A DNA stretch of 64,000 bases. Source: Bacteroidales bacterium. Lineage in GTDB: Bacteria; Bacteroidota; Bacteroidia; Bacteroidales; TTA-H9. The position numbers and the translations under genes are program-made. Each line of letters begins with the position of its first letter. Position 1 is the stretch's first letter. The notes below the pieces were generated by a model. The model worked only from the letters and a program-made list of their open reading frames with translations, was not told where the DNA came from and did not search any database. This document shows positions 43,246 to 64,000 of the stretch, in pieces. The stretch lies in assembly GCA_028689615.1 (NCBI GenBank), contig JAQVCV010000002.1, positions 20,092 to 84,091 on the forward strand, written 5' to 3'.

Positions 43246-43696
43246 TTACCTCTAAAATTCCTTCAGAAACAACCAAATGCGTATAGTTGGGAATAAAAGG
43301 AACAGGATATGGCAGAGCCGACGACGGGAAAGTTGTTGTAAGAGCAATGCACCCCATACCAGCTGCCAGAGCCGCCTCTATTCCATGAGGGGCATCCTCA
43401 AAAACAAGGCAATTCCCGGGAACCACACCAAGCCTGTGAGCTGCCTTGATAAAGATCTCGGGATTGGGTTTCCCAAATTCGACGTGGGTTGCATCAACCA
43501 CAACATCAAACCAATGCCCCAATTTACCCTGTTCGAGCGTAAAACTGACATTCTCAACAGGAGCACTTGTAGCCAAAGCCAGCGGCAACCCCAACGACTT
43601 CAGTGTATAGCCCACAAAACCAAATGCTCTCCCATTTTTGCCGAAATTTCCTTCACAACTAATTGATTTTAGCCATTTTTGGCCGTTTTTAAACAA
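43241..43696 (-). pseudogene. 5'-truncated HAD-superfamily hydrolase gene (beta-phosphoglucomutase-like C-terminal half only), probably disrupted by prophage insertion
   Basis: Retains HAD motifs III and IV (GKPNPEIF; VFEDAPHGIEAALAAGMGCIAL). Lacks the N-terminal DxDGT nucleophile motif. The in-frame sequence upstream of the TTG 'start' runs only 15 codons to a stop and shows no HAD homology. Confidence 0.55.
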
Positions 43697-43925
43697 ACAG
43701 CGAAAACAGAAACCAATTGTATTCTCTTTAACCAGGCTTTAATTTATGACCCCGACACCGGGGCTAACGGTTATAGAGGTTAAAACAACCCCTCTAAAAG
43801 CCCCAAAAGCCCCGTAAATACAACATAAAACATGCCTCCAACTACACCCTTTTACTCCACCAATATGCTACCCCCACAGGTGGCTTTTTTTGTGATGTGT
43901 GGTACATTAAAAAGGGGCAAAAAAG

Positions 43926-43961
43926 GGGATGGGGATAGGGATGGGGATAGGGATGGGGATA
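43926..43961. repeat. perfect 3 x 12-bp G-rich tandem repeat (gggatggggata)
   Basis: Read directly at 43926-43961. It generates spurious ORFs on both strands (GDRDGDRDGD and IPIPIPIPIP) and forms GGG/GGGG runs separated by 2-3 nt. Confidence 0.9.
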
Positions 43962-44222
43962 GTAAAAAGCGTTTTTTTGGGGTGATTCAGGTATGGAAAC
44001 GACCCAAAAACAGCCAAAAACGGCACAAAAAACACGTTTTCGAGGGGGAAACTACCCCCCTGTTTGTGACGTATAACAGAAAAACACATATAAAAACAGG
44101 CTAGAAAACAGTTAATTACAACATATAAGGCTTGGTAGCACAGCAAAAAAGCGTGCGTGGCGTGGGCGCGTTTGGTTTTGCGCGCGGCTCGCGTTAATGG
44201 GCGAGGCTTATATATAGGTGTA

Positions 44223-44666
44223 CTACCCTGCCTTTCTTTTTTGCCCTTCGTGCGTGGCAAGTCTTTCGGCAAGGTCGGCATTGAGGGCCTTAAGGGTTTC
44301 GATGGTGGTGGTTTGCGAGGCGATGATCTGCTCTCGCAACTCGCACTGCTGGCACGGGCCTGGTGGACGCTCGGCGGCATGGCCAGATGCCTGAGGGTAA
44401 ACCGGTTCTGTGCGTGGGGTTGATTCTTCTTTACGCAACATTGTTCCGTTGCCTGTTAGAAGCCATGTTGTATCAATTTTTTCAGAAATATCTGTATTAA
44501 AGAAGCGTTCAAAGAAGTCGAAAGATGGTTTAGCTTTCTTGTTAAGGATGTCATAAATAGCTTGACTTCTTTTGTAACCTAATGCAACAGCAAAGGAGTT
44601 GGGGTTAAGGTTGTAAAAATCAATGATTTGATTAATTCTTTCAGAAATATTTGTAATATTCTTCAT
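44223..44666 (-). CDS. phage repressor-like HTH DNA-binding protein (Bacteroidota 'WLLTG' family) with C-terminal coiled coil
   Basis: ATG at 44666. HTH ([17 protein letters not shown]) followed by the TTWLLTGNG motif common in Bacteroidota prophage regulators. Divergent from the early operon, like Mu c. Confidence 0.55.
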
Positions 44667-44678
44667 TTTTTCTTGCAT

Positions 44679-44737
44679 TTACAGAAAATCTTGTATTATA
44701 TTTGCATCATGTTTAACACAGGCAAATGTAATTAATT
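44679..44737. promoter_or_regulatory. divergent promoter/operator region between repressor-like gene and early operon
   Basis: Contains TATATTTG (a match to the Bacteroidota sigma-A -7 consensus TAnnTTTG) about 30 nt upstream of the ATG at 44738. Also contains repeated TTTGCAT/ATGCAA-like half sites. Confidence 0.45.
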
Positions 44738-44977
44738 ATGGAAGGCAAGAAATTGAAACCAGTACTTTTCCCCGAAAATCGAAAGGTGTCCGCCGTTTTA
44801 CAAAAAGGCGATCGCCAACGGATAGCCACCGAAACGGGCTACACCATTATATCAATACGCGATATGCTGCAAGGCTACCGCCGTATGCCCGATAAGGTGA
44901 AGCAAGCCATAGTGAACCTGATGAACCAGCGGCGCGAACTCAACGCCACGCTCGAACAAATTGTGGAACAAGCTTAA
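44738..44977 (+). CDS. small early protein, Ner/Cro-like DNA-binding protein (putative)
   Basis: 79 aa and basic. It is the first gene of the rightward early operon, directly upstream of the transposase. Assignment is by position only. Confidence 0.35.
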   Translation: MEGKKLKPVLFPENRKVSAVLQKGDRQRIATETGYTIISIRDMLQGYRRMPDKVKQAIVNLMNQRRELNATLEQIVEQA

Positions 44978-45002
44978 AGCACTTTTGATATGGATATGAA
45001 AT

Positions 45003-45503
45003 TTAATTCAAAGGATAATCTTGTTCCTTTTCAATCACTTTCAGAAAGTGATCAGTATAAACTAATAGCCTTATATGGGAATCCTCGTGAAACTCAATGT
45101 ATGGGTAATTCAGGGGCCGGTAAAACCGATCCGGAAATGGATACTCCGGCAAGGCTTTGTAAAATTGAACCCCAACATCAACTCCCTCGAAAGACAACGA
45201 AGGCACTTTGTGAAATATGCAGTCAATTGTCGCCCGAAAATCTTTCCTCTCTACCCTCGTATTTTCATTTGACCGGAAATGGATCAGGTCATATGTGTTT
45301 GTGTCAAATGTTTGACCGGATAAATCGGGATCGAAAGCAAATTGGCATGCCTCAGATATCGCGTAGTCAAGCTTGTAAATTGATGCAAGATGTTTTAGTA
45401 ATTCTAAAATGTGGGGACGATAACAAGCAGCGCTTTCCTGGCCGCAGTAATAGTACACCAAAACATTTAATCTCCAATGTTTAACGCGATTCGTTTTTTT
45501 CAT
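45003..45503 (-). CDS. hypothetical protein (minus-strand ORF; a same-locus plus-strand ORF 44990..45484 is an alternative)
   Basis: 166 aa with aromatic-rich composition, which looks more protein-like than the plus-strand alternative. No motif recognised. Confidence 0.3.
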   Translation of the reverse strand: MKKTNRVKHWRLNVLVYYYCGQESAACYRPHILELLKHLASIYKLDYAISEACQFAFDPDLSGQTFDTNTYDLIHFRSNENTRVERKDFRATIDCIFHKVPSLSFEGVDVGVQFYKALPEYPFPDRFYRPLNYPYIEFHEDSHIRLLVYTDHFLKVIEKEQDYPLN

Positions 45504-45565
45504 GGCCCTTCAATAATATGCGGGTTAATAATCGAATAACGAAGATACAGTAAAAATTAATTGCT

Positions 45566-47572: not shown

Positions 47573-47585
47573 AAATCAATGCAAT

Positions 47586-48482
47586 ATGGTTACAACAGAA
47601 GTTAAGTCGAAGATCATGGCGGCCATGCACGAAGCCCGCCGCAATTTCAACGGATCGGCCTCGCGCTTTGCCGTTACACTTGGCATTTCGCCAGCTCAAT
47701 ACAGCCGTGTGGCCAATGGCGACACCGAACACGTGCTATCTGACGCCAACTGGCTTTCGATTGCACGACGTCTTCAGGTAGAACTCAACCCTGCGGCCTC
47801 GTGGAAAGTGGCCAAGACGCCGGTTTACGAGTACATTTACACCCAGCTCACCCACTGCCAGATGCACAGCACATCGGGCTTGCTGTGCGATCTGCCCGAC
47901 ATTGGGAAAACGTTCACTGCAAAGCAGTACATCCGCGAAAACAAGAACGCTGTTTACATTGATTGTTCGCTGGTAAAAAGCAAGCAGCGCATGGTGCGCC
48001 AAATCGCCAAGGAGTTCGGGCTTGCACACCAGGGAAAGTACAGCGATGTGTTTGAAGACCTCATTTTCTTTCTCAAGGGCACTTCACACCCGGCACTCAT
48101 TGTGCTCGACGAGGCAGGCGACCTTTATTACGAAGCATTTTTGGAGCTAAAAGCCCTGTGGAACGCCACCGAACGCTCATGTGGCTGGTACATGATGGGA
48201 GCCGACGGCCTGCGCCACAAGATTGAGCTGGCCATAGAGCACAAGCGGGTGGGTTATGCCGAGTTGTTCAGCCGGTTCGGGTCGCGCTATGGGCGCATCA
48301 CCCCCGCCACAGCCGAGGAGTTGAAGCAGTTCAGGATGCTGCAGGGCAAGATGGTGGTTGATGTAAACTACCTCGCCGATATGAGCACACCAGGCCCCGA
48401 GTATATGCGCCAGGTGCTTGCCCGCACCGACATGTCGCTGCGCCGCATCTACACCGAGATCAAGAAAGTAAGCATAGCGTAA
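47586..48482 (+). CDS. MuB/TniB-like AAA+ transposition ATPase with N-terminal HTH
   Basis: ATG at 47586. HTH (AVTLGISPAQYSRVANG). Walker A (DLPDIGKTF). Walker B (ALIVLDEAGDL). Positioned immediately after the transposase. Confidence 0.6.
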   Translation: MVTTEVKSKIMAAMHEARRNFNGSASRFAVTLGISPAQYSRVANGDTEHVLSDANWLSIARRLQVELNPAASWKVAKTPVYEYIYTQLTHCQMHSTSGLLCDLPDIGKTFTAKQYIRENKNAVYIDCSLVKSKQRMVRQIAKEFGLAHQGKYSDVFEDLIFFLKGTSHPALIVLDEAGDLYYEAFLELKALWNATERSCGWYMMGADGLRHKIELAIEHKRVGYAELFSRFGSRYGRITPATAEELKQFRMLQGKMVVDVNYLADMSTPGPEYMRQVLARTDMSLRRIYTEIKKVSIA

Positions 48483-48492
48483 ACTGTAATTA

Positions 48493-49116
48493 ATGGCAAG
48501 GGCATTCACTATGTCAGAATTGATAAACAGGCGCTACGACGAGATTCAGTTACCCGGCAAGCTGGGCGACCTGGTAGGCTGCCCCGAGTTGTCGGGAAAC
48601 TGGATTATATGGGGCCCCTCTGGCAACGGCAAAACATCGTTCGTGCTTCAATTGCTCAAGGCTTTTGCACAGGCCGGCATCAAGTGCATCTACAACTCAC
48701 TTGAGGAGGGCGATGGCAAAACGCTACAGGCCGCCGCCATTCGCGAGGGTATGGGCGAGGTTTCGGACAAGATACTCGCCCTGCGGCGTGAACCCATCGA
48801 CGATTTGAAGCTTCGGCTTCAGCGGCACAAAAGCCCGCGCGTAATAGTGGTCGACTCGCTGCAATATACTGGCATCAGTTACCCACAGTACAAGGCCCTG
48901 AAGGAAGAGTTTAGCAACAAGCTGTTCATCTGGGTGAGCCATGCCGACGGGCGTGAGCCAGCCAGCCGCACAGCCCGCACCATCCGCTACGACTGCGACG
49001 TGAAGATTCGTATTGAAGGCTTCGTTGCCTACGCCACGAGCCGCTACGGCGGTGGTAAACATTACGTGATCTCCGAGGAGAAAGCACTGGAGCTTAACGG
49101 GAAATTACCTGAATAG
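48493..49116 (+). CDS. RecA-superfamily P-loop ATPase (DnaB C-terminal/KaiC-like fold)
   Basis: Walker A GPSGNGKTSF. A hydrophobic strand plus acidic residue, VIVVDSLQY, resembling the DnaB/RadA Walker B region. Confidence 0.5.
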   Translation: MARAFTMSELINRRYDEIQLPGKLGDLVGCPELSGNWIIWGPSGNGKTSFVLQLLKAFAQAGIKCIYNSLEEGDGKTLQAAAIREGMGEVSDKILALRREPIDDLKLRLQRHKSPRVIVVDSLQYTGISYPQYKALKEEFSNKLFIWVSHADGREPASRTARTIRYDCDVKIRIEGFVAYATSRYGGGKHYVISEEKALELNGKLPE

Positions 49117-49136
49117 AAACCATAAAAACCAGACAC

Positions 49137-49316
49137 ATGGCAAACAAGTCAATTACAAAACAAGTTACCGTGGTGCGTTACAATCCGGCCACGATGTCGC
49201 TCACCTACACGCGCGGAGGCCGCCCCATCGGGGGGCTTCGGGGGAGCGTTGCAGAGCGCACCTTTTTTAAGCATCTCGAAAGCGGGATGCGCATTGAATT
49301 TACAACCAATAATTAA
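49137..49316 (+). CDS. hypothetical small protein (59 aa; not in ORF track)
   Basis: Hand-translated: MANKSITKQVTVVRYNPATMSLTYTRGGRPIGGLRGSVAERTFFKHLESGMRIEFTTNN*. Starts 21 nt after the preceding gene. Confidence 0.25.
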   Translation: MANKSITKQVTVVRYNPATMSLTYTRGGRPIGGLRGSVAERTFFKHLESGMRIEFTTNN

Positions 49317-49322
49317 GATCAT

Positions 49323-49547: not shown

Positions 49548-49579
49548 AGAATGTTTTTTTTACTAAATGCTTACCTAAT

Positions 49580-49800: not shown

Positions 49801-50415
49801 ATGATTCAAAATTCAAAACAAAAAACCTGGACCGATGAGGCAGGCATGGAGATTCCCTTCACCCGCATCACGGCAGAAGAAAAAAACAGGGAGCGGCAGG
49901 CCGCCAAGCTGCTTGCTGATGCTAAAAAAATCAATTCAATGCTGGCGGCCTTCAAAGATAACGTGAGCGAAACCTGCACACAAGTGTATGAGGCTTACAT
50001 GGCGTCGAGAAAAATTACTGCACCCATGAAGGGTAATTTTACCTGGTACAACTTTGACCGCTCTATCAAAATTGAGGTTAGCGTAAACGAACGGATTGAA
50101 TTTGATGACATGTCGCTTGCTGCATGCCGTTCAAAACTCAATGAGTTTCTCGAAGGGGCTATCGATTCGAAGGTGGAGTTTATTAAAGACCTGATAAATG
50201 AAGCATTCACTACATCGAGAGGCCGGCTTGATTCAAAAAAGGTGATGAGCCTGCTGAAGTACAAATCGAAGATCAAAGAGCCGGCTTTTTCTGAGGCTAT
50301 GGATTACCTGGAGCAATCAATAAGAAGATCGACAAGTAAAACTTACTTCCGAGTCTGGGAAAAAGGCAAATCGGGAGAATATGAAGCTATTGACCTTAAC
50401 TTTTCATCAATATGA
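49801..50415 (+). CDS. hypothetical phage early protein (about 200 aa, helical)
   Basis: No catalytic motif. Positionally equivalent to Mu early accessory genes. Confidence 0.4.
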   Translation: MIQNSKQKTWTDEAGMEIPFTRITAEEKNRERQAAKLLADAKKINSMLAAFKDNVSETCTQVYEAYMASRKITAPMKGNFTWYNFDRSIKIEVSVNERIEFDDMSLAACRSKLNEFLEGAIDSKVEFIKDLINEAFTTSRGRLDSKKVMSLLKYKSKIKEPAFSEAMDYLEQSIRRSTSKTYFRVWEKGKSGEYEAIDLNFSSI

Positions 50416-51550: not shown

Positions 51551-51904
51551 ATGAGAACCCCAAAAATTTATATCGCCGGCAAGATAACCGGGCTTGATTT
51601 AAATGAGGCAAGAAAGGCCTTTGCAGATGCTGAAGCGTTTTTGCGCGAGGCGGCTCCAGAGTGTGCTATCGTAAACCCAATGACCTTGCCCCACCAGCAC
51701 GACCATTCTTATGAAAGCTACATGCAGGAGTGCCTCGAAGAGCTCAAGCAGTGCCAGGTTGTGTATGTGTTAAACGGATGGAGCGGTAGTAAAGGAGTTC
51801 TTACTGAAATACGGATGGCTGCAGAACGCAGGATGCTCATTATTTTTGAAACGGCAAACGCTGACAAGGTTGTGGCGTTTGAGTTAAACAAGATGATAAG
51901 ATGA
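51551..51904 (+). CDS. DUF4406-family (nucleoside 2-deoxyribosyltransferase-like) protein
   Basis: Pattern KIYIAGKITG...VNP...YMQECLEELKQCQVVYVLNGWSGSKGVLTEIRMA matches the DUF4406 / deoxyribosyltransferase-like fold signature (IYIAGpmtG ... l.GW..S.Ga..E). Confidence 0.5.
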   Translation: MRTPKIYIAGKITGLDLNEARKAFADAEAFLREAAPECAIVNPMTLPHQHDHSYESYMQECLEELKQCQVVYVLNGWSGSKGVLTEIRMAAERRMLIIFETANADKVVAFELNKMIR

Positions 51905-53262: not shown

Positions 53263-53667
53263 ATGTTAAACGAATTGTCAAAACAAATTCACGAAAATGC
53301 TAAATCAAAAGGCTTTTTCGACAATGAAAGAAATTTAGGTGAAATGCTTTGCCTTATTCATTCAGAAGTATCAGAGGCTTTAGAAGCCGTAAGAACTGAT
53401 AATTATTATTCAAATTGCTGTGATGAGCAAAAGTGGTTCATTAAAGGAATGGCAGACAAAAACTACGGCGCAACCTTTAATGATGACTCATTTTTCAAAG
53501 AACAATTTGAAAACAGAGTAAAAAATTCTTTTGAGGATGAACTTGCAGACGTTGTTATTAGGGTTCTCGATTTGTGTGCTTTCAAAGATATCGACATCGA
53601 AAGTCATATTAAGGCAAAAATGCGTTATAATGCACTCAGACCACATAAACACGGAAAGGCTTTTTAA
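53263..53667 (+). CDS. MazG-like nucleoside-triphosphate pyrophosphohydrolase
   Basis: Motifs EVSEALEA, EDELADVVIRVLDL and KMRYNALRPHKHGK match the all-alpha NTP-PPase (MazG/HisE) family signature (E.xEl.ea...EElaDvl..ll.la...). Confidence 0.6.
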   Translation: MLNELSKQIHENAKSKGFFDNERNLGEMLCLIHSEVSEALEAVRTDNYYSNCCDEQKWFIKGMADKNYGATFNDDSFFKEQFENRVKNSFEDELADVVIRVLDLCAFKDIDIESHIKAKMRYNALRPHKHGKAF

Positions 53668-53816: not shown

Positions 53817-54335
53817 TCAGGAAGATGATTGTAAGATTGGGCTTGGCTTAATGATGCCCGCGTCCACGTCGGGGCTAAGGTCGGTGAATGTGAGCTGCGC
53901 CGTGGTGTCGGTTAGCAGGGTTTCAAACCGGAGGTGGTACTCGCGTATGCCATCGTCGCGCACCACGCGTTTGAACCCGGCGCGCGAAAGGGTGCCATAG
54001 TGCGAGTCGGTACCGTGCCAGCCATGCAGCTTCTGGTAAACGGTTTGTGCCAGGCCAAAGAAACTGTTAGCGTTGTTGCGCCCATTCACCGGAGCCTTTT
54101 GGCTGGTTTTGTTCAGGCGGGTATCGGCCAGCCTTATGAGCACCGTGCAATCAATCAACTGCACCTTGCTGCCCATGTTCGATGGCGCGGCGTCAACAAT
54201 ATCAACCAGGGCGCACGGCCACCGCACGGGCGGGTTCTGGCTGAACTCGTCGAGCTGGCCCCAGTCCTCGTCAATGTACAATATGCCGGCAATTTCGGTG
54301 AGGCGGTTTCTCACGTCTTCAATGAGTGTTACCAT
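53817..54335 (-). CDS. hypothetical phage structural/morphogenesis protein
   Basis: 172 aa. Last gene of the minus-strand head module. No motif. Confidence 0.35.
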   Translation of the reverse strand: MVTLIEDVRNRLTEIAGILYIDEDWGQLDEFSQNPPVRWPCALVDIVDAAPSNMGSKVQLIDCTVLIRLADTRLNKTSQKAPVNGRNNANSFFGLAQTVYQKLHGWHGTDSHYGTLSRAGFKRVVRDDGIREYHLRFETLLTDTTAQLTFTDLSPDVDAGIIKPSPILQSSS

Positions 54336-54336
54336 G

Positions 54337-54882
54337 TTAGCGGGGTTTTAATCGTGATTTAATGAAAGCATCAATATCGGCCTCGCGGCCTTTAACTACT
54401 CGTTCAATGGCGTTTTTTACCTGCGGGTGGTTGCCTATAAACTGCCTTTTGGGAAAGGTAAGCGTTTCCCCAACGGGTTTTAGAGCCAGGGCCTTCCACC
54501 AGGCGGCTTCGTCGGTCAGAGCCCGGTTGCGAGAGGTTTTGGCTGCGCCCTTTGTTTTTACACTATACGTTATGGCGTTGGTATTTTTGTAGTACATGGC
54601 CCAGAAAAATCGTTTCATTTTGGCCGTAAGCTTTACCTTGCCGCCGGCATTGTGCAGTTGAGCATACGGGGTGCTGCTGGTAAATACGACGGCACTGCCG
54701 GCAACCCGGGCGCGCAGGCTGCGGCGAAGTCTGCCGGTACGAAGCATCAGCGATCCGCGCTTATTAGGCATTCGCACACCGGGCCATGGATCGTCGAAAA
54801 AGGCCTTGCGCTCGAAGTTTTTGTCGAATTCATCGGCCAATTCCACCTTCAGGTCGTTCAACAGGTCACGTAAAAAGTTCAT
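54337..54882 (-). CDS. phage virion morphogenesis protein, Mu G-like (putative)
   Basis: 181 aa. Follows the F-like gene as in Mu (F then G). Pattern FDDPWPGV...MLRTGRLRRSL resembles morphogenesis-family proteins. Assignment is mainly positional. Confidence 0.4.
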   Translation of the reverse strand: MNFLRDLLNDLKVELADEFDKNFERKAFFDDPWPGVRMPNKRGSLMLRTGRLRRSLRARVAGSAVVFTSSTPYAQLHNAGGKVKLTAKMKRFFWAMYYKNTNAITYSVKTKGAAKTSRNRALTDEAAWWKALALKPVGETLTFPKRQFIGNHPQVKNAIERVVKGREADIDAFIKSRLKPR

Positions 54883-55007
54883 TTTTTTTGATCAAATTGT
54901 CGGTTATGCGAAAATGTGATGTATCTTTGTAGCGGCTGGGGACAGAGCAGGCGTTTTACTCCTGCCCCCCGGCCCCCCAAAAAGCATCCGCAAGGGTGCT
55001 TTTTGCT

Positions 55008-56390
55008 TTATAAGGCAAAGGAATCGGATAATATGTAACCACGCTGGAATTTTTTATCGTTTCCGTTTCTGAAAATAGTGATAGCATTAATACTGCCCTC
55101 GCGCAAAACACGGCTTTTAATTGCCCGTGATAAAGTATTGTTGTCAATATCTGACTTGACGTGAATGATAACGTGTTCTGCTTTCTTCGCTGCATCTCTT
55201 ATGGCAAGGTCAATAGCGTTTTTTGTTGGTTTTCGGTTAGTCTTAAACTCGAGTATTTCTGAAGTAGTGTAATTGTAGGCATCGGCGGTTTTAGTGTTAA
55301 AGCCACTTGCTAAGAGTTTGATGTGGTGCCCGTACTTGTTTGCAAAGTGCCGGGCGATCTCAATGTTTTCGGCTTTCTCGTTTTTTCCATGCAGTGAGCT
55401 TATTTCTAGTTTTCCCGCTTTTGTTTCGACGGTTGTAACCGTTTCTCCGCTAACAGCAAGTTGTTTTTCAACCTGTTCGCGTAGTTTAAAGTACGGATGG
55501 TGAGGAGGGAAGATCACGGCCTGCTTCCCAGGGTTGAAGCGGAACATCTCAAGCCTGTTTGCCCTATTTTTATCAATATGGGTAGTGGCTTTTTTCCCCT
55601 CTTCGATGGCTTTGGCGGGGTCGCTCTCAGGGTATTTGTTTTTGAGTACCTGTACTACGGTGCACCGGCATCTCCAGCCATTTGGAGGGTAATACGAGTT
55701 CCAGAATTCGTCGGTGGCAGGCAGGGTTGTGCGGTTCAGTCGTTCGTGGCTTTCGCGCACGCGGTCGTCGGCTGCCGTGCGGTACTGGAGGTTGTAGCGG
55801 TCGCCATCGGTAGCCTGGTCAGCCCACCGGGCGGCCATCTCCGCGCTTTGAGTCGCGAAGTTGTACTCGGCCTCCAGGTAGTGTTCGTTGTAGCGTTTAT
55901 GCACCTTGAGTACGGCTACTTTGAAGGTGTTCCACTCCACGGGTTTCCCTTCAGCGTCGAGTAGCATGGCCGAAGCTTCGCGCAGCTCCACCTCCGTTTT
56001 GCACCCGGAGAACACAAACACATCGCTCTTCAGTTTTTGAAGCAGCTCAGGCGGTACCACCGTTTCCACGGTGCTGAGCGATGCCGACAGCGATCGGTTT
56101 ACTTCGCTCACCAGTGCTTTCACAGGCTTATGGCTGAGCATCCCGGTGTTGTAACCTCCTTTGCCGTGTAAGTACTTCACTGCTCCAATAAACACCTGCC
56201 TGTTGATGCCCGGGGCGGCTGCAAGGTTTGCAGGGCCGCACACAGGGCAATCGGCATACAACAACTCAAGGTGGCGGTTAAGCCCCGGCAGGGCGGGGCT
56301 GCTTAAAAAAAACTCTGGTTGTTCCTTCCTGCCGGTAAGGCCTGTGTTTTTTCGCCTGTTACCTCTATGCCAAACTTTCGCTTGATCCAT
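55008..56390 (-). CDS. phage head morphogenesis protein, Mu F / SPP1 gp7 family, with ~130-aa C-terminal extension (start uncertain; long overlap with the portal gene)
   Basis: Conserved F-family core (DDRVRESHERLNRTTLPATDEFWNSYYPPNGWRCRCTV). Immediately downstream of the portal. The first in-frame ATG after the overlap region is at 56141. Confidence 0.6.
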   Translation of the reverse strand: MDQAKVWHRGNRRKNTGLTGRKEQPEFFLSSPALPGLNRHLELLYADCPVCGPANLAAAPGINRQVFIGAVKYLHGKGGYNTGMLSHKPVKALVSEVNRSLSASLSTVETVVPPELLQKLKSDVFVFSGCKTEVELREASAMLLDAEGKPVEWNTFKVAVLKVHKRYNEHYLEAEYNFATQSAEMAARWADQATDGDRYNLQYRTAADDRVRESHERLNRTTLPATDEFWNSYYPPNGWRCRCTVVQVLKNKYPESDPAKAIEEGKKATTHIDKNRANRLEMFRFNPGKQAVIFPPHHPYFKLREQVEKQLAVSGETVTTVETKAGKLEISSLHGKNEKAENIEIARHFANKYGHHIKLLASGFNTKTADAYNYTTSEILEFKTNRKPTKNAIDLAIRDAAKKAEHVIIHVKSDIDNNTLSRAIKSRVLREGSINAITIFRNGNDKKFQRGYILSDSFAL

Positions 56391-57511
56391 TCCGGATCGA
56401 TTGAGTAATACTGCATGGCATCTTTCACCATGCCCCAGAGAACCTCAAGGTCTTCGGTAGGTTCATATTCGTAGGTGAGCCCATCGGGCAACAACCCCAG
56501 CTTCACCAGACCGGGCATCACGATGGTGTTGAACCAGGCCTCGATGATGGTTTTATCGGCCTCTACCAGTTTAGAAAGGGCCTTGTTTGATTCCTTTTCT
56601 TTGCTCTCGTTGCCGTTTTTGGTATCCTGGCCAATGATGGCACCGGTTACGAGCATACAAAATTCATCGTTGCAAAGCTTGATCAGGTTGTTGTAAACAT
56701 CGCCATTTGTTACGGCCCCCTGGGCGAATTCAAGCTCCTCGGCATCGTCGATAATAAACCATGCTGCGGCACCCATGTCGCGCATCATCTGTTCGCCACA
56801 CGAGAGTATTACCGGGTCCTGGGTGTTTGTTTTCAAATACCTCGGAGGTATTCCGTATATCTCGGCCAACTCGCTCCAGCAGGTTTGAGCAAACCCCTTC
56901 AGCAAAACGTGCGGTACCACTTTGTTGAGCAACCCCAGATCGTTTGCTTTCCCGAATTCATAAACCCACCAGCCAAATTCACGGGCATCGCGGTAGCGTA
57001 TGCCGGAGGTGTCGTTTTCGTCCTTCAGCAGGATGCCGGCACGAGGTTCTATGTTGCGCCGGTTGATGAGTGTGAGCTTGAGGCCGCCTCCCGGATTGTC
57101 GAATTCGACCAGCGAATGACCATACCACCGGGCCTCCCACATATAAGCGATCAGATCGGCGAACCAGTGTGCTTTCTTCAGGGCTTTTGTCAAATCCTCG
57201 TCAATGGTGCCAGAAGCATCTTTTAGCGAGAAGGTGGCACCCAGAACCTGATTTTTCCTGTTTTCGAGCTGCGAGGTCAATTTGGCATCAATACAAATGT
57301 CGTCGTAAAGAGCCTGAATTCTGGCACGGCGTGGAGTCTCGACTGCGAGCGCGGCTCTGATTGCGGTTTTCCATGAAGCGATGTCTTGCCGGGTTTGCGA
57401 TACGGCTTTAAGTTGGATAGACGAGTTCCAGGTTTCCTTCCGTTTTGGTGCCTCCGGAAGTGTTTGTTTTTGAGCAACAGCGAGGTTGGTGTTACGGCGT
57501 TTTTTTGTCAT
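56303..57511 (-). CDS. phage portal protein (Mu gp29 / DUF935-like, putative)
   Basis: 402 aa between the terminase and F-like genes. Acidic stretch typical of portals. Assignment rests on gene order TerL, portal, F. Confidence 0.5.
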   Translation of the reverse strand: MTKKRRNTNLAVAQKQTLPEAPKRKETWNSSIQLKAVSQTRQDIASWKTAIRAALAVETPRRARIQALYDDICIDAKLTSQLENRKNQVLGATFSLKDASGTIDEDLTKALKKAHWFADLIAYMWEARWYGHSLVEFDNPGGGLKLTLINRRNIEPRAGILLKDENDTSGIRYRDAREFGWWVYEFGKANDLGLLNKVVPHVLLKGFAQTCWSELAEIYGIPPRYLKTNTQDPVILSCGEQMMRDMGAAAWFIIDDAEELEFAQGAVTNGDVYNNLIKLCNDEFCMLVTGAIIGQDTKNGNESKEKESNKALSKLVEADKTIIEAWFNTIVMPGLVKLGLLPDGLTYEYEPTEDLEVLWGMVKDAMQYYSIDPEWIKRKFGIEVTGEKTQALPAGRNNQSFF

Positions 57512-57529
57512 TTAAACAGTCTTTAAATG

Positions 57530-58003
57530 TTAATACTCGTGGTTGAACTTCTCTCGGCTTCCGGCTCGGAACGGGAGTGATGTGTCGGACTCGGGGTCGG
57601 ATTCGAGCACAGGCAGGTTTGCACTTATTGGGGTTTGCCCGGCGTATTTGCCTGTGGCCGATACCTTCTCAAGCCAGTCTATTGCTCTGTCATATCTTTG
57701 CTTTACCTGCTCGTGAATGATGTCAACATTGGCCAGGCGGCAGATGTAATACACGGCCATGCTCTTGCATAGTTCAAGAATGAGTGGATTGCGGGCTTCC
57801 TCCTCGGCGTTGAATATGGCGCTGATGTCGTATCGCTTTCGCCCGTCGCGGTAATGAGTTTGGGAGTTTGGCTCCAGGTAGCTTTTCATCTCCTCTATGG
57901 CAGCCCCAATTGCCATAGAGGGGATGTCAGCATTCCCTTCGGTAATTTGCTCGAGCTGGTAGGCGTAAATTGCGCTCGATAACTCTTCGGTTGTGATAAA
58001 CAT
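57530..58003 (-). CDS. hypothetical phage protein
   Basis: 157 aa between terminase and portal. Confidence 0.35.
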   Translation of the reverse strand: MFITTEELSSAIYAYQLEQITEGNADIPSMAIGAAIEEMKSYLEPNSQTHYRDGRKRYDISAIFNAEEEARNPLILELCKSMAVYYICRLANVDIIHEQVKQRYDRAIDWLEKVSATGKYAGQTPISANLPVLESDPESDTSLPFRAGSREKFNHEY

Positions 58004-58005
58004 AA

Positions 58006-58308
58006 TTAATGAGTTATATAAATAGCCTGTTTTTCGATATGTTGAATTGTAACTCCCTTTTTAAAAACCCTTTTTGCGATCCAGTTTTTGAGTTTGTATT
58101 TGGGTATTGCTACCGGCTTGCCAGCATAATTTATTACAATGTATTTGCAGCCGTGCAAGCTTGCAAGCCGTTTGGCCTCTTTTATTTTTCGCTCAGAGGC
58201 TGTTTTGTAACGCCAGACTTTGTATTTATACCATTGTGTTTTGATCCAGGCTACCGGTTTGCTCTGCCGCCTAAGTAATGGCGTAGGGATGGGTGTTTGT
58301 TTTTCCAT
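58006..58308 (-). CDS. hypothetical small basic phage protein
   Basis: 100 aa, Lys-rich. Located 3 nt downstream of TerL. Confidence 0.3.
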   Translation of the reverse strand: MEKQTPIPTPLLRRQSKPVAWIKTQWYKYKVWRYKTASERKIKEAKRLASLHGCKYIVINYAGKPVAIPKYKLKNWIAKRVFKKGVTIQHIEKQAIYITH

Positions 58309-58310
58309 GG

Positions 58311-59864
58311 TTAGTATTTATGGGAGGCTCTTACGCCGAAGCGAAACAGCCCTTTTGATTTGCGTGTAACAATGTTGAGTTTGCTTATGGCTCCTTCCAC
58401 GGCGTCGGGGCCGTCTTTAGGCGCGCCGCTTCCTTTCTCGAAGGCCAGGTACTGATCTACAAGCTCTATCTGATCGGCTGAGTCTTTCTCGTCGATGTTG
58501 AAATAGACGTTGCGCCGCTCGAAGTATGGTTCGGTGGCTTCAATGCGTTCGTCCTTATCGGCCTTGGGTCGTTTGTCGGCGGTAACCGGGATGTAGTATC
58601 CCCGGTCGTCGCCTTCGGTATCGAAGTCGTTTACGAATTCATCCATGGCGAAGAGGCCTTCAATGTAGTAGCGGATTTTAGAAACCTCTTTTAGGTTTTT
58701 GTCCTGGTAGAGGTCGTAGAGCCATTTGGCCAGTTTAGCCCGGCTGGTTTGGCGCAGAAAGGAGTGAATGATATGGATTTCGCGGTCTTTTTTACCAACC
58801 AGGAACATGCCTTTGTGGCAGGCGTTATCCTTAAAACTCAAGTCGCCGTAGAAATTAAGGGCGTCGTACTCTTTATAAGGGAGCATTTTCTTCCACTGCA
58901 TATCCGATGCTTTGAAAATCTTGCCATCGGCCACGTGCTCGTGCATATACTCGCGCAGGAAAGAGCGGGTTGGTGTGTTGCGGTACTTCCGTCGCCAGTA
59001 GTCGGCACTGGTTTTCTCGGGCCATTCAGGCGTAAAGCTCACCAGGTCTTTTACAGCCTTTACTTTTAGTATATGGTGAACAATGCGTTGCCCCTCTTCC
59101 CTAGCCCGCTCTATCAACACGCTGAACTGTTTTTCGAGTCGGTTGGTGATCGAGTTTTTGTGAAAGTTGTTGTTGGTATATACAAACCGTTTCACGGCAT
59201 TGTCGGCTTCGTCGAAGCAGCCCCATATTTCTTCAGTAATATAATCAACCCCCTCTGTCATCAGAGAGTCATTTTTAACATGTTTTTTATTATCCACATC
59301 GTCCACGTTGATGTAGTCGGGCCGGTCGGCTCCTTCGCGGATGCCCCTCGGCGATTGGCCGAAGCCTAATGCCGTGAACCGGGCCCCGGTGCTGGTAACA
59401 AAGTCGCCGGTTGACCAGTCGCCGGCTTTGTAGCGTGGCCCATAATCGTTTTCAAGCCTTTTGTTGAACTCAAATTCACTTTGGATGCTCGACAGAAGCT
59501 TCTTGGCTTTTATTTCGGTTTCTCCCACCAGCAGCATGAACCGGAGCCTGTTGGTGAAGTAAAGGAATAAGGGAATGCCCATCCCGGCATGAACCGACTT
59601 AGCCGACGACCTGAAGCCCTCAAACTCCAAATAGCACTCCTGCTCCTGTAGCAAAAGGGCCGCCTTTTTGTGAAACCATGCGCACTTTGCTTTGGCGTAG
59701 TGGGGGAAATAATACTCGAACCAACTGTTATACTCGGCCTCCAGGCGCGCCTTCCGATCGTTGAGGGCTCTGGCCGTTTCGGCAATATTGACCGATGTGG
59801 CGTTGGCAACTTTGCGGCAGTGATCTTCATACTGCAGCAATAGTTTCTCCATCTGTTTATTCAT
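58311..59864 (-). CDS. phage terminase large subunit
   Basis: Degenerate terminase Walker A (EGFRSSAKS). C-terminal RNase-H-like nuclease acidic motif (KDGPDAVEGA). Length 517 aa. Preceded by an HTH small subunit, with an 8-nt overlap. Confidence 0.7.
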   Translation of the reverse strand: MNKQMEKLLLQYEDHCRKVANATSVNIAETARALNDRKARLEAEYNSWFEYYFPHYAKAKCAWFHKKAALLLQEQECYLEFEGFRSSAKSVHAGMGIPLFLYFTNRLRFMLLVGETEIKAKKLLSSIQSEFEFNKRLENDYGPRYKAGDWSTGDFVTSTGARFTALGFGQSPRGIREGADRPDYINVDDVDNKKHVKNDSLMTEGVDYITEEIWGCFDEADNAVKRFVYTNNNFHKNSITNRLEKQFSVLIERAREEGQRIVHHILKVKAVKDLVSFTPEWPEKTSADYWRRKYRNTPTRSFLREYMHEHVADGKIFKASDMQWKKMLPYKEYDALNFYGDLSFKDNACHKGMFLVGKKDREIHIIHSFLRQTSRAKLAKWLYDLYQDKNLKEVSKIRYYIEGLFAMDEFVNDFDTEGDDRGYYIPVTADKRPKADKDERIEATEPYFERRNVYFNIDEKDSADQIELVDQYLAFEKGSGAPKDGPDAVEGAISKLNIVTRKSKGLFRFGVRASHKY

Positions 59865-60285
59865 CGGCTTGGGCTAAATGGTGCAGGTAGCGTTTGTGCA
59901 TCTCAGTAAAGGGTACGGCCATCTGAGGCGCATTTTCAACCAACCAATTGTCGAATGCCTTAAACACCGACATTGTTACCGGAATGCTGGTCGATTGCCG
60001 CTCGAACGACAAGAACACCTTCTGAATTTTACTAAGTGCGTCAGCATCGATGTTCGACTTTTTCCCCTCGGCGATTGACTTGAGCTCGGTAAGCAGCAGT
60101 TCCCGTATTTTGCCAGGGGACGCCAGGTAGTCGTCGCGCTTCTTGTCCCATCCGTATTTTTTTCGCCACCCTGAGAGAGTGACTTCCGATATAGACAGTG
60201 TTTCGCTGATTCCAACGGCATTAAGCCCGCCTTCCACGAACAGCGTCTCGGCGTCGGCGTATAGTTTGTGTCGCGGTAGTTTCAT
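59857..60285 (-). CDS. phage terminase small subunit (HTH)
   Basis: 142 aa. HTH (GISETLSISEVTLSGWRKKYGW). Overlaps TerL start. Confidence 0.5.
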   Translation of the reverse strand: MKLPRHKLYADAETLFVEGGLNAVGISETLSISEVTLSGWRKKYGWDKKRDDYLASPGKIRELLLTELKSIAEGKKSNIDADALSKIQKVFLSFERQSTSIPVTMSVFKAFDNWLVENAPQMAVPFTEMHKRYLHHLAQADE

Positions 60286-60449
60286 GCTACTGTTAATTAA
60301 AATGACAAAGTTCAGTTACATTCGGCGTGTTTCGCTTCTTTTTTCTGTTGCTCGGTTGTTTTGTCCTATTATCGGACAAAGTCTTGCTTTGAGCATAAGC
60401 GCGCTATAAGTTTGCGCTTTCATTTGCAGTATGCACAAACAAAAATTAT

Positions 60450-61409
60450 TTGCCTATGCCTACCCCCTCATTTGTGTTTAATGACGAAACGGTAAAAAAC
60501 AGCCATGGATTCAGGTTGCTGAATTCCGGAGGCCGATTTGAGCGTTTCAACGACAACCCGGTGATGCTCGACACCCACGACCCGAAAAGCGTGATAGGGA
60601 AATGGGGCAACCTGAAAGTGGAAGGCAGCAAACTGATAGCAGAGCCCGTGTTTGACCTCGATGATGACCTGGGAAAGCGAATTGCCGGCAAAGTGGAGCG
60701 TGGCTTCCTGAAGGCCGTTTCGATGGGCATCTACATTGAGGAAGCGCAATATATGAGTCTGCCAAATGGCGATCTTGACCTTGTGGTTACAGCCTGGGAA
60801 CTGCTTGAAGGCAGTGTGCTGGGTGTACCAAGTAACCGCTCGGCATTGGCGTTTTACTCGCGCGAGGGAACACAGCTTAGTGCCGATCAGGTACTATCTA
60901 CAGTGCAACAGCTTGCTGCTCCCACTCACCCGAACCCTAATTTACCTTTTAATATGAACAAAATCGTTTTGAGTGCCGAGGCAGCTACTGTCCTCGGTGT
61001 TGCCATGGAGCACGATGACCCTAAGGCCATTAATGCTGGCATTATGGCACTTGGTGCCAGAGCCGAAAAGGCTGAAGCAGACCTCACCGCTTTTAAAAAA
61101 GAGCGCGCTACCACGATGGTCGATCTGGCTATTGCCGAAGGCCGTCTCGACGCAACGCGTAAGGAAAGTTTCATTTCACTTGCAACTGATGACTTTAAAC
61201 AAGCCAGCGACATTCTTGCCGCCATCCCGGCTAAGCAAAACCTTTCCGGAAACGTGAAACAAGGCGAACAGGGCTTAGCGGGCGACCGTGCCGGCTGGGA
61301 CTGGAAGCGTTACGAGAAAGAAGACCCCAAAGGGCTTGAGCAACTTCGGATGCGCAACCCCGAAGAGTACGACAGGCTTCGGTTTGCCTACAAAGGCCAG
61401 TATAGCTAA
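60450..61409 (+). CDS. HK97-family prohead serine protease fused to an Ala-rich coiled-coil scaffold-like C-terminal domain
   Basis: N-terminal region with the His context (LDTHDPKSVIGKW) and the Ser context (LLEGSVLGVPSNRSALA) resembling Peptidase S78/U35. C-terminal 150 aa is A/E/K-rich coiled coil. Confidence 0.6.
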   Translation: MPMPTPSFVFNDETVKNSHGFRLLNSGGRFERFNDNPVMLDTHDPKSVIGKWGNLKVEGSKLIAEPVFDLDDDLGKRIAGKVERGFLKAVSMGIYIEEAQYMSLPNGDLDLVVTAWELLEGSVLGVPSNRSALAFYSREGTQLSADQVLSTVQQLAAPTHPNPNLPFNMNKIVLSAEAATVLGVAMEHDDPKAINAGIMALGARAEKAEADLTAFKKERATTMVDLAIAEGRLDATRKESFISLATDDFKQASDILAAIPAKQNLSGNVKQGEQGLAGDRAGWDWKRYEKEDPKGLEQLRMRNPEEYDRLRFAYKGQYS

Positions 61410-61439
61410 TCATTTTTGTTAAACCAATTAAATACCGTT

Positions 61440-62450
61440 ATGAAACGTTTTTCGTTTAAAAATTTTCTGTTCAATGTGATGTTTGGCCTTTTGTTGGCCA
61501 TGTTTACCCCGTTGCCGGCTGCTGCTGCCATCGGTCTTACCCTTGCTGGTGGAACCACCATGTCGTTTATCCCTCAATCATCGGTACTAAGAGCCGGTGT
61601 GGCTAAGGAGATATGGACCGACCAGATCATGGAGGGGTTTTATCCCAAGGATGATTTCCTGGCATGGTCACGCGATATGTCGAGTTTGGTAGAATACAAC
61701 CAATTGAACCTTGCCGAGGCTGGTGCTGATCCGTTGTTGCTTATTGATAATACCGACTACCCTATTACTTCGGCTGTTCGTACCGACGTGCCCAAAACCA
61801 TTGCGTTGCGCACCCTTGACACCAACAGTACCATTGTTCGTAATCTGGAAGCTCTGGAAGCCTCATACGATAAAAGAGAGAGCGTTCTTCGTGGCCATAG
61901 AAATGTGTTGCGCAAAGGATCTGTTCAGCTTGCGGCACACTACTGGGCACCTCAATCAAACGGCACCTACACTCCGGTGCTTGCAACAACTGGCGCGGTA
62001 ATCAACAGCAGGAAGCGGCTACAGTTTGAAGACGTGCTTGAGCTTCGCAGTAAATTGCTCGCCCTTGATGCCGATCTCTCCTCGTTCGCCATGTGCTTAC
62101 ATCCATTGCATGAAGGCGATCTGATGGCGCAGGACATGAAACTCTATAAAGAAATGATGGCTAACGGGAAGCTTTGGGAGTTTACTTACTTTGTGAACAG
62201 CCAGGTGCCACGCTTCAATGCCAGCACAGGTGCTAAAGTGGCCTTTCAGGCAGCCGCAGCCGGAACCGATACTGTAGCAACCATATTCTGGTCGCGTGAC
62301 GAAGTGATGCGCGCAGATGGCACGGTTGAAATGTTCGCCAAATTTAAAGACCCTGATCAGAAAGGGGACGTGTTCAACTTTCAGAAGCGTTTCGTGGCTT
62401 TACCCTTCCGCAATAAGTTGCAGGGAGCAATCTACAGCCCTCAGTCATAA
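61440..62450 (+). CDS. putative major capsid protein
   Basis: ATG at 61440 (the track's start at 61416 is TTG). About 336 aa, directly downstream of the protease/scaffold gene. No diagnostic motif. Confidence 0.45.
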   Translation: MKRFSFKNFLFNVMFGLLLAMFTPLPAAAAIGLTLAGGTTMSFIPQSSVLRAGVAKEIWTDQIMEGFYPKDDFLAWSRDMSSLVEYNQLNLAEAGADPLLLIDNTDYPITSAVRTDVPKTIALRTLDTNSTIVRNLEALEASYDKRESVLRGHRNVLRKGSVQLAAHYWAPQSNGTYTPVLATTGAVINSRKRLQFEDVLELRSKLLALDADLSSFAMCLHPLHEGDLMAQDMKLYKEMMANGKLWEFTYFVNSQVPRFNASTGAKVAFQAAAAGTDTVATIFWSRDEVMRADGTVEMFAKFKDPDQKGDVFNFQKRFVALPFRNKLQGAIYSPQS

Positions 62451-62473
62451 AATAACCCCATTTACCCCGCGAG

Positions 62474-62944
62474 ATGACCACATTGCAATTGCTCGTGATA
62501 CACTGCACCGCCACGCCAGGCGGGCTCGAAGTGACGGCAGCCGACATCAGGCGCTGGCACCTGTCGCCCCCGCCGGCTGGCCGGGGTTGGCACCGGGTAG
62601 GTTACACCGACCTGGTACACCTCGATGGCAGGGTAGAGCGGCTTGTGCAAAACAACGAGGACTCACAGGTTGATCCGTGGGAGGTGACCAATGGAGCCAT
62701 GGGGTTTAATCAGATAGCAAGGCATATAGTTTACGCTGGTGGAATTGGTGTCGGGGGGAAGCCCTCCGACACCAGAACCCCGGCACAGAAAGATGCGTTG
62801 CGAAATTATGTGCTCTCGTTTCTTCAGGTACACCCACAGTGTAAAGTAGCCGGACACAACCAGCTCGCACCAAAAGCCTGCCCCTCGTTCGATGTGCCCC
62901 AGTGGCTCAGATCGATCGGAGTAAACCACCAAAACATCTACTAA
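62474..62944 (+). CDS. N-acetylmuramoyl-L-alanine amidase endolysin (Amidase_2/PGRP family)
   Basis: Zn-ligand contexts LLVIHCTATPGG (first His) and KVAGHNQLAPKACPSF (second His plus Cys) match the AmpD/T7-lysozyme amidase fold. Confidence 0.75.
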   Translation: MTTLQLLVIHCTATPGGLEVTAADIRRWHLSPPPAGRGWHRVGYTDLVHLDGRVERLVQNNEDSQVDPWEVTNGAMGFNQIARHIVYAGGIGVGGKPSDTRTPAQKDALRNYVLSFLQVHPQCKVAGHNQLAPKACPSFDVPQWLRSIGVNHQNIY

Positions 62945-63309
62945 TGCTCGAAATCATTAGCTTTATATTGAATGCACTGCTTAGCAGCGGGTTGGTTATA
63001 ACGCTGCTTAACCTGCGATCGGAGCGTAGGCGCGCCAGGACAGAAAACTACAAGTCGGAAATTGACCTGGTAACCACCTCGGTTGAGACCATGATTGAAG
63101 CACAGAAAAAGCTAATGGCGCACAACCAGGAGCTAATTGTTGCACTCACCGACTCAAGGCGTGAAAACGCCCAACTTGCAAGTAAAATTGATGAGTTGGA
63201 GAAGAAAATAAGCGACATGATTTGCACGAACAAAGAAATCGTGAAAATCCTTCGGAAAATGAAAATTGATGATGCCATTATCAGCCGACTCAATGATACT
63301 CAAAATTAA
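62944..63309 (+). CDS. i-spanin-like protein (N-terminal TM anchor plus periplasmic coiled coil)
   Basis: ATG at 62944 overlapping the amidase stop. TM (LEIISFILNALLSSGLVITLL) then a heptad-rich segment (ENAQLASKIDELEKKISDM). Confidence 0.4.
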   Translation: MLEIISFILNALLSSGLVITLLNLRSERRRARTENYKSEIDLVTTSVETMIEAQKKLMAHNQELIVALTDSRRENAQLASKIDELEKKISDMICTNKEIVKILRKMKIDDAIISRLNDTQN

Positions 63310-63820
63310 AACCCTCGTTATCGCTTTTGCTATCGTGGTTGCAGTAACGGGCTGCCGTCCCGTAAAGCACGTCACTACCGATCAACGACACGACAGCGTG
63401 GTGTATCTTGAGCGTACTGTTGTGAAAGATTCGTTAATCAGGGTGCCAGTACCTGCCGATTCGGCTTTAATAGAGGCCATCGTAGAGTGCGACTCTTTGA
63501 ACCAGGCACACATAGCCTACATTGTTTCGCTTACCGATGGCGCACGGGCGCAGATAAGCATGAAGTTAGACAACAACGTGCTCACGTTGGGTTGCCGTTG
63601 CGATTCGCTCACCATTTACTCGATCTACCACAGCCGTTATCAGCAGATCGCTGAGTCGGCTACCAATACCACCGTTATGGCATCGACCACCGAGGTGCGT
63701 CAATCACTGCTCGAAAACTGGGTGGTGATACTGGCCCTGGCATTTCTGTCAGTTGTATCCCTTTTTTTATCAATTAACTATCTATTAGACCATGTCAAAA
63801 GGAACCAAGAAAGAAATTGA
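63293..63820 (+). CDS. lipoprotein with C-terminal TM helix, embedded/overlapping the previous gene (o-spanin- or u-spanin-like)
   Basis: ATG at 63293 lies inside the 3' end of the coiled-coil gene in another frame. Lipobox AVTGC. C-terminal TM VVILALAFLSVVSLFLSI. Confidence 0.4.
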   Translation: MILKIKTLVIAFAIVVAVTGCRPVKHVTTDQRHDSVVYLERTVVKDSLIRVPVPADSALIEAIVECDSLNQAHIAYIVSLTDGARAQISMKLDNNVLTLGCRCDSLTIYSIYHSRYQQIAESATNTTVMASTTEVRQSLLENWVVILALAFLSVVSLFLSINYLLDHVKRNQERN

Positions 63821-64000
63821 GCCAGCCAACCAGCCGGCCATCAAGAAAGATCAAGCCGCTGCCGGCCCCGGAACAGTTCCAGGCGAAGGAGGCGGAAATC
63901 CGACTGAACCATCCGCTGAATTACCATTCAGGAAGAAGCGAGCCGCAGAAGTGTTCGCCACACACACGGTTGATGAATTGTATTTCACCACCGACGATCA
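63792..64000 (+). CDS. hypothetical phage protein (3' partial, runs off window)
   Basis: ATG at 63792. Gly/Pro-rich N-terminus. No motif. Confidence 0.3.
   Translation, partial: MSKGTKKEIEPANQPAIKKDQAAAGPGTVPGEGGGNPTEPSAELPFRKKRAAEVFATHTVDELYFTTDD

Follow-up and report, generated by a model that had tools for sequence, protein, structure and literature searches.

The right part of the 64,000-nt stretch of contig JAQVCV010000002.1 analyzed here (hereafter the window, meaning the whole stretch) carries the left 20.4 kb of what we read, with a probability of about 0.92, as a complete 33,936-bp transposable (Mu-like) prophage in an uncultured Bacteroidales host. The element belongs to the lineage of Hankyphage and the transposable phages of Porphyromonas gingivalis, and extends from window position 43606 to window-equivalent position 77541, interrupting a HAD-hydrolase gene. 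Transposable-phage criteria were those of Saltoviridae sensu Hulo et al. 2015, while placement in the lineage was based on gene order and on pairwise and profile comparisons with P. gingivalis phage007a_Bg4 (PP754929), Hankyphage p00 (BK010646), TCUEAP3 (OK632026) and Mu (AF083977). An earlier sequence-only reading of the window had proposed a Mu-like gene set from ∼44.2 kb onward, with the right end outside the window. Pfam and PHROG family matches bear out the gene set, and the right end was found 13.5 kb past the window edge, in an identical contig of a metagenome-assembled genome (MAG). Exact-protein look-ups located the same sequence in MAG GCA_028696535.1 and in the Logan assemblies of SRR22315504 and SRR22315505. 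Overlaps of these contigs with the window were 99.97–100% identical, and the two loci used for the junctions, L005 and L008, were 100% identical to it. Because of this identity, L008 (contig JAQVGW010000051.1) was taken as the continuation of the window, an L008 coordinate plus 62198 giving the window coordinate. Judged from its sequence, the prophage looks intact, with all expected modules and both ends present.

Both ends of the element were read directly at their junctions with host DNA. The left junction, ...ACGACTTCAGTG/TATAGCCCACAAAACCAAATGC..., lies at window position 43606 and the right junction, ...TTTTTTTGATTATA/AGTGCGAAAAGA..., at L008 15343 (window-equivalent 77541), so that the flanks read ...TTCAGTG/TATAG...GATTATA/AGTGCG..., where the slash marks the junction. 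The 4-bp sequence AGTG thus borders the element on each side, its right copy occupying L008 15344-15347 (window-equivalent 77542-77545). The terminal inverted repeats are imperfect and 22 bp long; read from the outside in, TATAGCCCACAAAACCAAATGC and TATAATCAAAAAAACGAAATGT agree at 16 of 22 positions. In the entire 33.9 kb there are just three exact copies of the motif AAAAC(C/G)AAATG, each no more than 45 bp from an end and pointing inward. One copy is at element positions 11-21 (this is AAAACCAAATG at window 43616-43626, inside the left terminal repeat), and two are on the opposite strand at 33926-33916 and 33905-33895. Terminal binding sites of a transposase would be expected to be arranged in this way, and we regard the motif as a putative site of that kind. 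The sequence-only reading had called for repeated sites at the ends and for a matching far end with a short duplication within 30-45 kb. The former have their candidates in the single left and two right motifs, and the latter was found where the element closes, at 33,936 bp. Its finer expectations have to be revised, since the left end is at 43606 rather than 43630, the ends read 5′-TATA...TATA-3′ rather than 5′-TG...CA-3′, and AGTG makes a duplication of 4 bp where 5 bp had been predicted.

Relatives of the element meet host DNA at the same terminus but in other surroundings. In locus L017, whose transposase is 81% identical, homology begins at this terminus beside an unrelated 28-nt flank. 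In a second relative (P0131, 50%-identical transposase), similarity starts exactly at TATACCCCTTAAAACCAAATG in all three flanks recovered, which adjoin RND-MFP, hybrid sensor kinase and Omp85 genes at three host sites, and a fourth contig begins at that TATA. Since the flanks of these relatives differ, the lineage inserts at many sites. The termini recur in phage genomes as well. The curated genome of P. gingivalis phage007a_Bg4 begins with TATAGGGCACAAAACGAC and its inverted right end is TATAATCGGCAAAACGAC; these termini (TATAGGGCACAAAAC, TATAATCGGCAAAAC) are homologous to the ends of the element, and the right end of the Elizabethkingia phage TCUEAP3 is TATAATCGCC. Conserved termini, with 4-bp bounding repeats outside the phage genome, have been described for the P. 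gingivalis transposable group (PMC10367356). Other placements of the ends were tried and discarded. Under the initial junction assignments (TTTT, and a right terminus displaced outward by 3 bp), the terminal repeats matched poorly and the HAD alignment contained a gap. The TG immediately outside the left terminus, also present in L017, was considered as element DNA, but was assigned to the host because the three insertions of the P0131 relative have tc, ca and cg ahead of the same TATA.

The interrupted gene provides an independent view of the insertion. In the window, the HAD fragment is matched by the Pfam HAD profile (191 positions) from position 109 to 191 only and consequently lacks motif I, as the earlier reading had noted of the N-terminal catalytic motif; motifs II-IV (S/T, K, ED) are present and the DxDGT nucleophile motif is absent. 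The missing N-terminal half was found at the far end of the element, where a minus-strand open reading frame (ORF) with an HAD_2 match, starting MNKQ...FDMDGTL and in the same orientation, directly follows the methylase gene. In-silico excision of the element together with one AGTG yields a 227-aa in-frame ORF (…DGLTDFLFALKSLGLPLALATS…), and it is only after this excision that motif I, with FDMDGT contributed by the right-flank fragment, and motifs II-IV are in one polypeptide. Two full-length homologues of 217 and 210 aa (P0002 and P0003) align to the rejoined protein continuously through the junction, identity with P0002 being 45% over 210 residues. The insertion point corresponds to HAD codons 107-108, and the expected empty-site sequence is GACTTCAGTGCGAAAAG. 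A search for the empty site gave no match at the DNA level, the closest intact HAD homologue being just 55% identical, and for this reason the right junction was used instead. One could suppose that the HAD fragment is a short paralogue or an old pseudogene and that the phage integrated site-specifically nearby. That supposition is refuted by the N-terminal half, which sits precisely at the opposite end, has the matching orientation and rejoins in frame, and the supposition has also to face a prophage with no integrase match among the scanned ORFs, no tRNA and relatives in unrelated sites; we assign it practically no probability. The earlier claims of insertion into a gene rather than a tRNA, by a phage other than a tyrosine-integrase phage, therefore stand. 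A minus-strand cluster at L008 15344-19488 ends with the HAD gene and also encodes a four-domain phosphoglucomutase/phosphomannomutase and an unannotated 660-aa protein. The insertion probably knocks out a step of a sugar-phosphate pathway, and loss of the last gene of such an operon may carry a small metabolic cost for the host.

The gene content of the element has the hallmark arrangement of the lineage, namely a MuA-MuB operon, an inverted TerS-TerL-adaptor-portal block, and rightward protease, capsid, lysin and tail genes (Table 1). The minus-strand block at 53817-60285 holds the protein in the TerS position, TerL, the adaptor, the portal, F and G. The sequence-only reading was right about the presence of the TerS-TerL-portal-F-G genes; their orientation is corrected here. 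In the Hankyphage, P. gingivalis and TCUEAP3 phages, TerS is annotated at the small-terminase position, and in the P. gingivalis phage the same block ends with an annotated 'tail completion protein' and the gene following the endolysin is annotated 'holin'. By their position, the two small proteins after the endolysin may be a holin and a spanin. Beyond the window, the lysis genes are followed by genes for a tail sheath (phrog_907, DUF2586), a tube-like protein, a tape measure and baseplate hub proteins, then by a tail protein where the fibre gene would be expected and, near the right end, a Dam-like N6 methylase. Since a sheath is encoded, the tail is probably contractile. Phage007a, Hankyphage p00 and TCUEAP3 share this gene order with its inverted block of packaging and portal genes, and each has a gene for DNA modification by the right end.

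Table 1. Features of the prophage and of its left junction within the window
Feature	Position	Strand	Evidence
HAD C-terminal fragment (beta-phosphoglucomutase-family), codons ∼108-227	43241..43605	-	Pfam HAD_2/Hydrolase, C-terminal part of profile only
Left target-site duplication copy, AGTG, 4 bp	43602..43605	.	Direct reading of both junctions
Left terminal inverted repeat TATAGCCCACAAAACCAAATGC	43606..43627	+	16/22 match to inverted right end
Internal inverted copy of terminal motif	44168..44185	-	83% complementary to 43610-43627
Repressor candidate, position of Mu c	44223..44678	-	PHROG transcriptional regulator/repressor families, E ∼1e-5
First rightward early gene, 79 aa, position of Mu ner	44738..44977	+	Position only
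Variable segment with overlapping ORFs of 164 aa (+) and 166 aa (-)	44990..45503	.	GC 0.39; between ner-position gene and transposase
MuA-like DDE-superfamily transposase (predicted), 668 aa	45566..47572	+	phrog_310, E 6e-52, full length
MuB-like AAA+ transposition ATPase, 298 aa (MAG gene call)	47586..48482	+	phrog_296, E 1e-37; Pfam AAA_22, HTH_3
P-loop ATPase after MuB, conserved in lineage	48493..49116	+	phrog_6891, E 6e-61
DUF3164 protein	49801..50415	+	Pfam DUF3164, E 1e-28
DUF4406/nucleoside 2-deoxyribosyltransferase-like accessory gene	51551..51904	+	Family match
MazG-like pyrophosphatase accessory gene	53263..53667	+	phrog_3301, E 5e-33; weak Pfam MazG
Last gene of minus-strand morphogenesis block	53817..54335	-	phrog_6911
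Mu G-like virion morphogenesis/neck protein	54337..54882	-	Pfam Phage_tail_S, phrog_26
Mu F-like minor head protein with C-terminal extension	55008..56390	-	Pfam Phage_Mu_F, E 3e-13; PHROG matches
Mu-type portal	56303..57511	-	Pfam Portal_Mu, E 2.8e-65
Mu gp36-like head-tail adaptor	57530..58003	-	Pfam Phage_Mu_Gp36, phrog_195
Large terminase subunit (TerL), 513 aa gene call	58311..59852	-	phrog_38, E 3e-59
Small DNA-binding protein, small-terminase position	59857..60285	-	phrog_4151 DNA binding protein
Prohead protease/scaffold	60456..61409	+	Pfam Peptidase_S78; phrog_11321, E 3e-63
Major capsid protein	61440..62450	+	phrog_267; position as in related phages
N-acetylmuramoyl-L-alanine amidase endolysin	62474..62944	+	Pfam Amidase_2; phrog_822, E 5e-45
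Two small proteins, holin/spanin-like positions	62944..63820	+	Gene calls; family matches very weak

The 668-aa protein was compared with transposases at the levels of sequence, profile and predicted structure. Using tblastn, it matched the annotated MuA-like transposases of the Hankyphage, P. gingivalis and Elizabethkingia phages; the match reached only residues 1-212 in the Hankyphage and P. gingivalis phages and was full-length only in three unannotated faecal contigs. An AlphaFold2 model built with 40 homologues had a mean predicted local distance difference test (pLDDT) score of 79.8. Its best fold match in the PDB was the Mu transpososome 4FCY (E 1e-15), followed by TnsB of Tn7 and of CRISPR-associated transposons (CAST), the MuA core (1BCM/1BCO), IstA and retroviral integrases. 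Judged by PHROG profile and predicted fold, the protein is a MuA-type transposase, in agreement with its earlier naming as a transposase. With TnsB and IstA also among the strong structural matches, the transposase and ATPase might be imagined as a separate Tn7/Tn552/IS21-like transposon that lies beside an unrelated prophage and alone disrupts the HAD gene. However, head, tail and lysis genes all lie between the matched inverted ends and AGTG copies, which bound the full 33.9 kb; there are no second ends inside, the exact terminal motifs being confined to the two extremes, and the layout from transposase to tail is the same in TCUEAP3 and Hankyphage. We consider such a composite very improbable and treat the transposition genes as part of the prophage. 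The P-loop ATPase following the MuB-like gene is labelled differently in related genomes: 'ATPase' in the P. gingivalis phage, 'helicase' in Hankyphage and 'ATP-dependent serine protease' in TCUEAP3.

Several results weigh against the assignment of the element as an intact Mu-like prophage. The Pfam rve and Mu-transposase models do not match the 668-aa protein, and among PDB sequences neither phmmer with the single sequence nor a 40-sequence profile gave a match. The middle catalytic residue is ambiguous, being either the invariant E379 or D388, which is 80% conserved. The repressor assignment, at E ∼1e-5, is weak, and the gene in the Ner position has no Pfam or PHROG match, so the earlier label 'Ner-like' holds for its position and fails for homology. 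No GemA or Mor match was obtained with Pfam and PHROG among early-region ORFs, where remote homologues could escape; both proteins are conserved in classical Saltoviridae, although fF4-like phages of Bacteroidota lack the two as well. Finally, all three assemblies carrying the prophage share one insertion site, and these assemblies probably represent one population.

The last of these points is also what could be expected of a Mu-like prophage that has become a defective, fixed remnant and has lost excision, replication and particle formation. This exact sequence has a single insertion site, and the MAG and Logan assemblies fragment within the element, which provides nothing positive on activity. 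On the other hand, all modules from the repressor through the tail fibre and methylase are uninterrupted ORFs, terminal motifs are present at both ends, the 4-bp duplication is perfect, and the HAD halves are undecayed and give an intact ORF when rejoined. The perfect duplication and undecayed HAD halves suggest that the insertion was recent. We therefore regard a defective remnant as unlikely, although it is by some distance the most serious of the alternatives. For the complete prophage, replicative transposition would be the expectation from its family, and this copy may still be active.

The identity of the catalytic residues was approached by alignment. In a MAFFT alignment, D269 and E392 of MuA fall opposite the invariant residues D313 and E414, and MuA D336 is paired with D388, a residue kept in 97 of 121 family members. 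By hhalign, the transposase profile aligned with the Hankyphage, P. gingivalis and TCUEAP3 transposases at E 8e-64, and the aspartate of their TDNQGG motif pairs with E379. This residue is invariant, closes the fourth beta-strand of the predicted structure and precedes E414 by 35 residues. Because of its pairing with the TDNQGG aspartate, a D-E-E triad (D313-E379-E414) is possible. When hhalign was run against MuA as a single sequence, one low-probability local match was obtained in the C-terminal barrel region and none in global mode; between the transposase core and MuA, neither phmmer nor hhalign detected sequence-level similarity. More than 4,600 relatives of the transposase were found at E <= 1e-10, nearly all unnamed or hypothetical, in Alistipes, Bacteroides, Parabacteroides, Pedobacter, Labilibaculum, Thermophagus and many metagenomes. 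We tentatively raise the idea, which we think somewhat more apt to be wrong than right, that these proteins form a large MuA-fold clade invisible to Pfam and differing from Mu in its TA-3′ ends, 4-bp stagger and perhaps D-E-E triad. If true, it would be a natural variant in chemistry and geometry of the Mu transpososome.

We propose that the prophage entered by transposition and not by site-specific recombination. The MuA-type transposase, aided by the MuB-like ATPase, would bind the AAAAC(C/G)AAATG repeats in the imperfect terminal inverted repeats and join the 3′ ends (...TATA-3′) to cuts staggered by 4 bp at HAD codons 107-108. The insertion would have split the HAD gene, and repair of the staggered target would have duplicated AGTG. 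The leftward repressor presumably keeps lysogeny. On induction, the phage would be expected to replicate by transposition and to be packaged by a headful mechanism into a contractile-tailed virion whose head carries Mu-type portal, F, G and gp36 proteins.

The left-end non-coding region and the early region have further features. Three perfect tandem 12-bp copies of GGGATGGGGATA, rich in G-tracts, are located at 43926-43962. L017 has three 12-bp units of GATGGGCTTACT at the same place, of other sequence but with a shared GATGGG core and the same 12-bp phase; proteins might bind to the array, as they would to an operator or enhancer. The inverted copy of the terminal motif at 44168-44185 is ∼560 bp inside the element, just past the stop codon of the repressor gene. 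Its sequence GTTTGGTTTTG is conserved in L017, and it may be an internal transposase site. In both the P. gingivalis phage and Mu, an annotated repressor occupies the position and strand of the repressor candidate. Between this candidate and the first early gene is a divergent region of 60 bp; there, TATATTTG at 44697-44704 is conserved in L017 and fits TAnnTTTG, the consensus of Bacteroides -7 promoters, so that an early promoter is plausible here. The 79-aa protein of the first early gene was called in identical form in the MAG and Logan contigs. The ORFs of the variable segment at 44990-45503 have no family match on either strand and the segment is not conserved in L017; there, the counterpart gene (1526-1871) resembles a stretch of the transposase gene (window 45798-46143) at ∼70% similarity. 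DUF3164 occurs in early regions of other transposable phages, TCUEAP3 included. In the head module, the Mu F-like protein has a C-terminal extension of ∼120 residues (window 55008-55400). Residues 378-443 give a weak, sub-threshold match to the CdiA_C toxin domain (E 3e-4), which recalls MuF-fused polymorphic toxins; no obvious immunity gene comes after it.

We also examined how widely the element occurs. The prophage region gave no megablast match among 50,697 phage records and is therefore without a close sequenced phage relative at the DNA level. Scanning a genome-contig collection, in which the host species is not represented, with a tail protein of the prophage gave no match, and scanning IMG/VR with the transposase gave one distant contig only. 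The contigs of relatives with 85%- and 58%-identical tail proteins stop before any right end. The short-read assemblies (L001-L009; MAG GCA_028696535.1, Logan SRR22315504 and SRR22315505) break at several points inside the prophage and not at its ends, and a 95%-identical variant of a tail protein (P0122) is present on small Logan contigs. These breaks and the variant suggest that related phage variants co-occur in those samples.

Active Mu-like phages had been described in the sequence-only reading as still rarely characterized in Bacteroidota. This view is outdated, since Hankyphage, the P. gingivalis phages, Flavobacterium columnare phage fF4, TCUEAP3 and thousands of Bacteroidales prophages have already been described. 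The family 'Candidatus Mubacviridae', proposed in a 2026 preprint and including Hankyphage, comprises thousands of Mu-like prophages of Bacteroidales, many of them active (bioRxiv 10.64898/2026.05.11.724261). The lineage is thus known and abundant, and the prophage is a further member of it; with Mu-like phages of Bacteroidota now numerous and well documented, it leaves the knowledge of phage biology unchanged. With its ends cleanly defined and its genome apparently complete, it can serve as a reference when the many relatives of its transposase that still lack annotation are annotated. In addition, TATA ends and a 4-bp duplication, first curated for the P. gingivalis phages, are extended to a second, sheath-encoding branch.

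The closest parallels are with the P. gingivalis phages (PP754929; Matrishin et al. 2023, PMC10367356). These share a size of 33-35 kb, non-specific insertion, 4-bp bounding repeats and homologous termini, TATAG...CACAAAAC and TATAATC...AAAAC. Their gene order is also alike: a leftward repressor, transposase, MuB-like protein, ATPase and minus-strand TerS-TerL-adaptor-portal-neck genes, then protease, capsid, endolysin and tail. In contrast, their transposase is just ∼22% identical overall, with tblastn similarity confined to the N-terminal 212 residues, and they have a 'major tail protein' and a long tape measure where the prophage has a tail sheath. Their host is an oral pathogen, that of the prophage an uncultured member of the Bacteroidales. 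Hankyphage p00 also infects Bacteroidales and shares the MuA-MuB operon, the minus-strand TerS-TerL-adaptor-portal-F block, the order of protease, capsid and lysin, and an N6 DNA methylase by the right end. At 42.8 kb it is larger, carries a diversity-generating retroelement and a thymidylate synthase, both of which the prophage lacks, and has TAAGG.../TAAATCC... termini in place of TATAG/TATAAT. The transposase core is divergent between the two, and the prophage encodes a sheath.

Phages fF4 and TCUEAP3 are, like the prophage, transposable phages of Bacteroidota of ∼32-33 kb with the Mu A/B/F/G/gp36 set and without GemA, but their hosts are of another class, Flavobacteriia. For fF4 the comparison follows its published description as a ∼32-kb Bacteroidota myovirus with the same set of Mu orthologues and no GemA (PMC7761591). 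TCUEAP3, a deposited phage genome from a wastewater sample, shares the DUF3164 gene, the architecture and the TATAATC right terminus, while its transposase is 32% identical, in the N-terminal third only. Mu itself has a leftward repressor, an adjacent transposase and AAA+ ATPase, and terminal repeated transposase-site motifs containing CGAAA, and the MuA fold is the one predicted for the transposase of the prophage. The likeness extends to the Mu-type portal, F, G and gp36, to the tail (contractile in Mu and probably so here), to a right-end gene for DNA modification and to insertions that fall in genes and duplicate a few base pairs of target. Homologues of GemA, Mor, Gam and Ner were not detected in the prophage. 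The late genes of Mu are all rightward, whereas the packaging and portal block is inverted here, and the TG...CA ends and 5-bp duplication of Mu are replaced by TATA...TATA and 4 bp.

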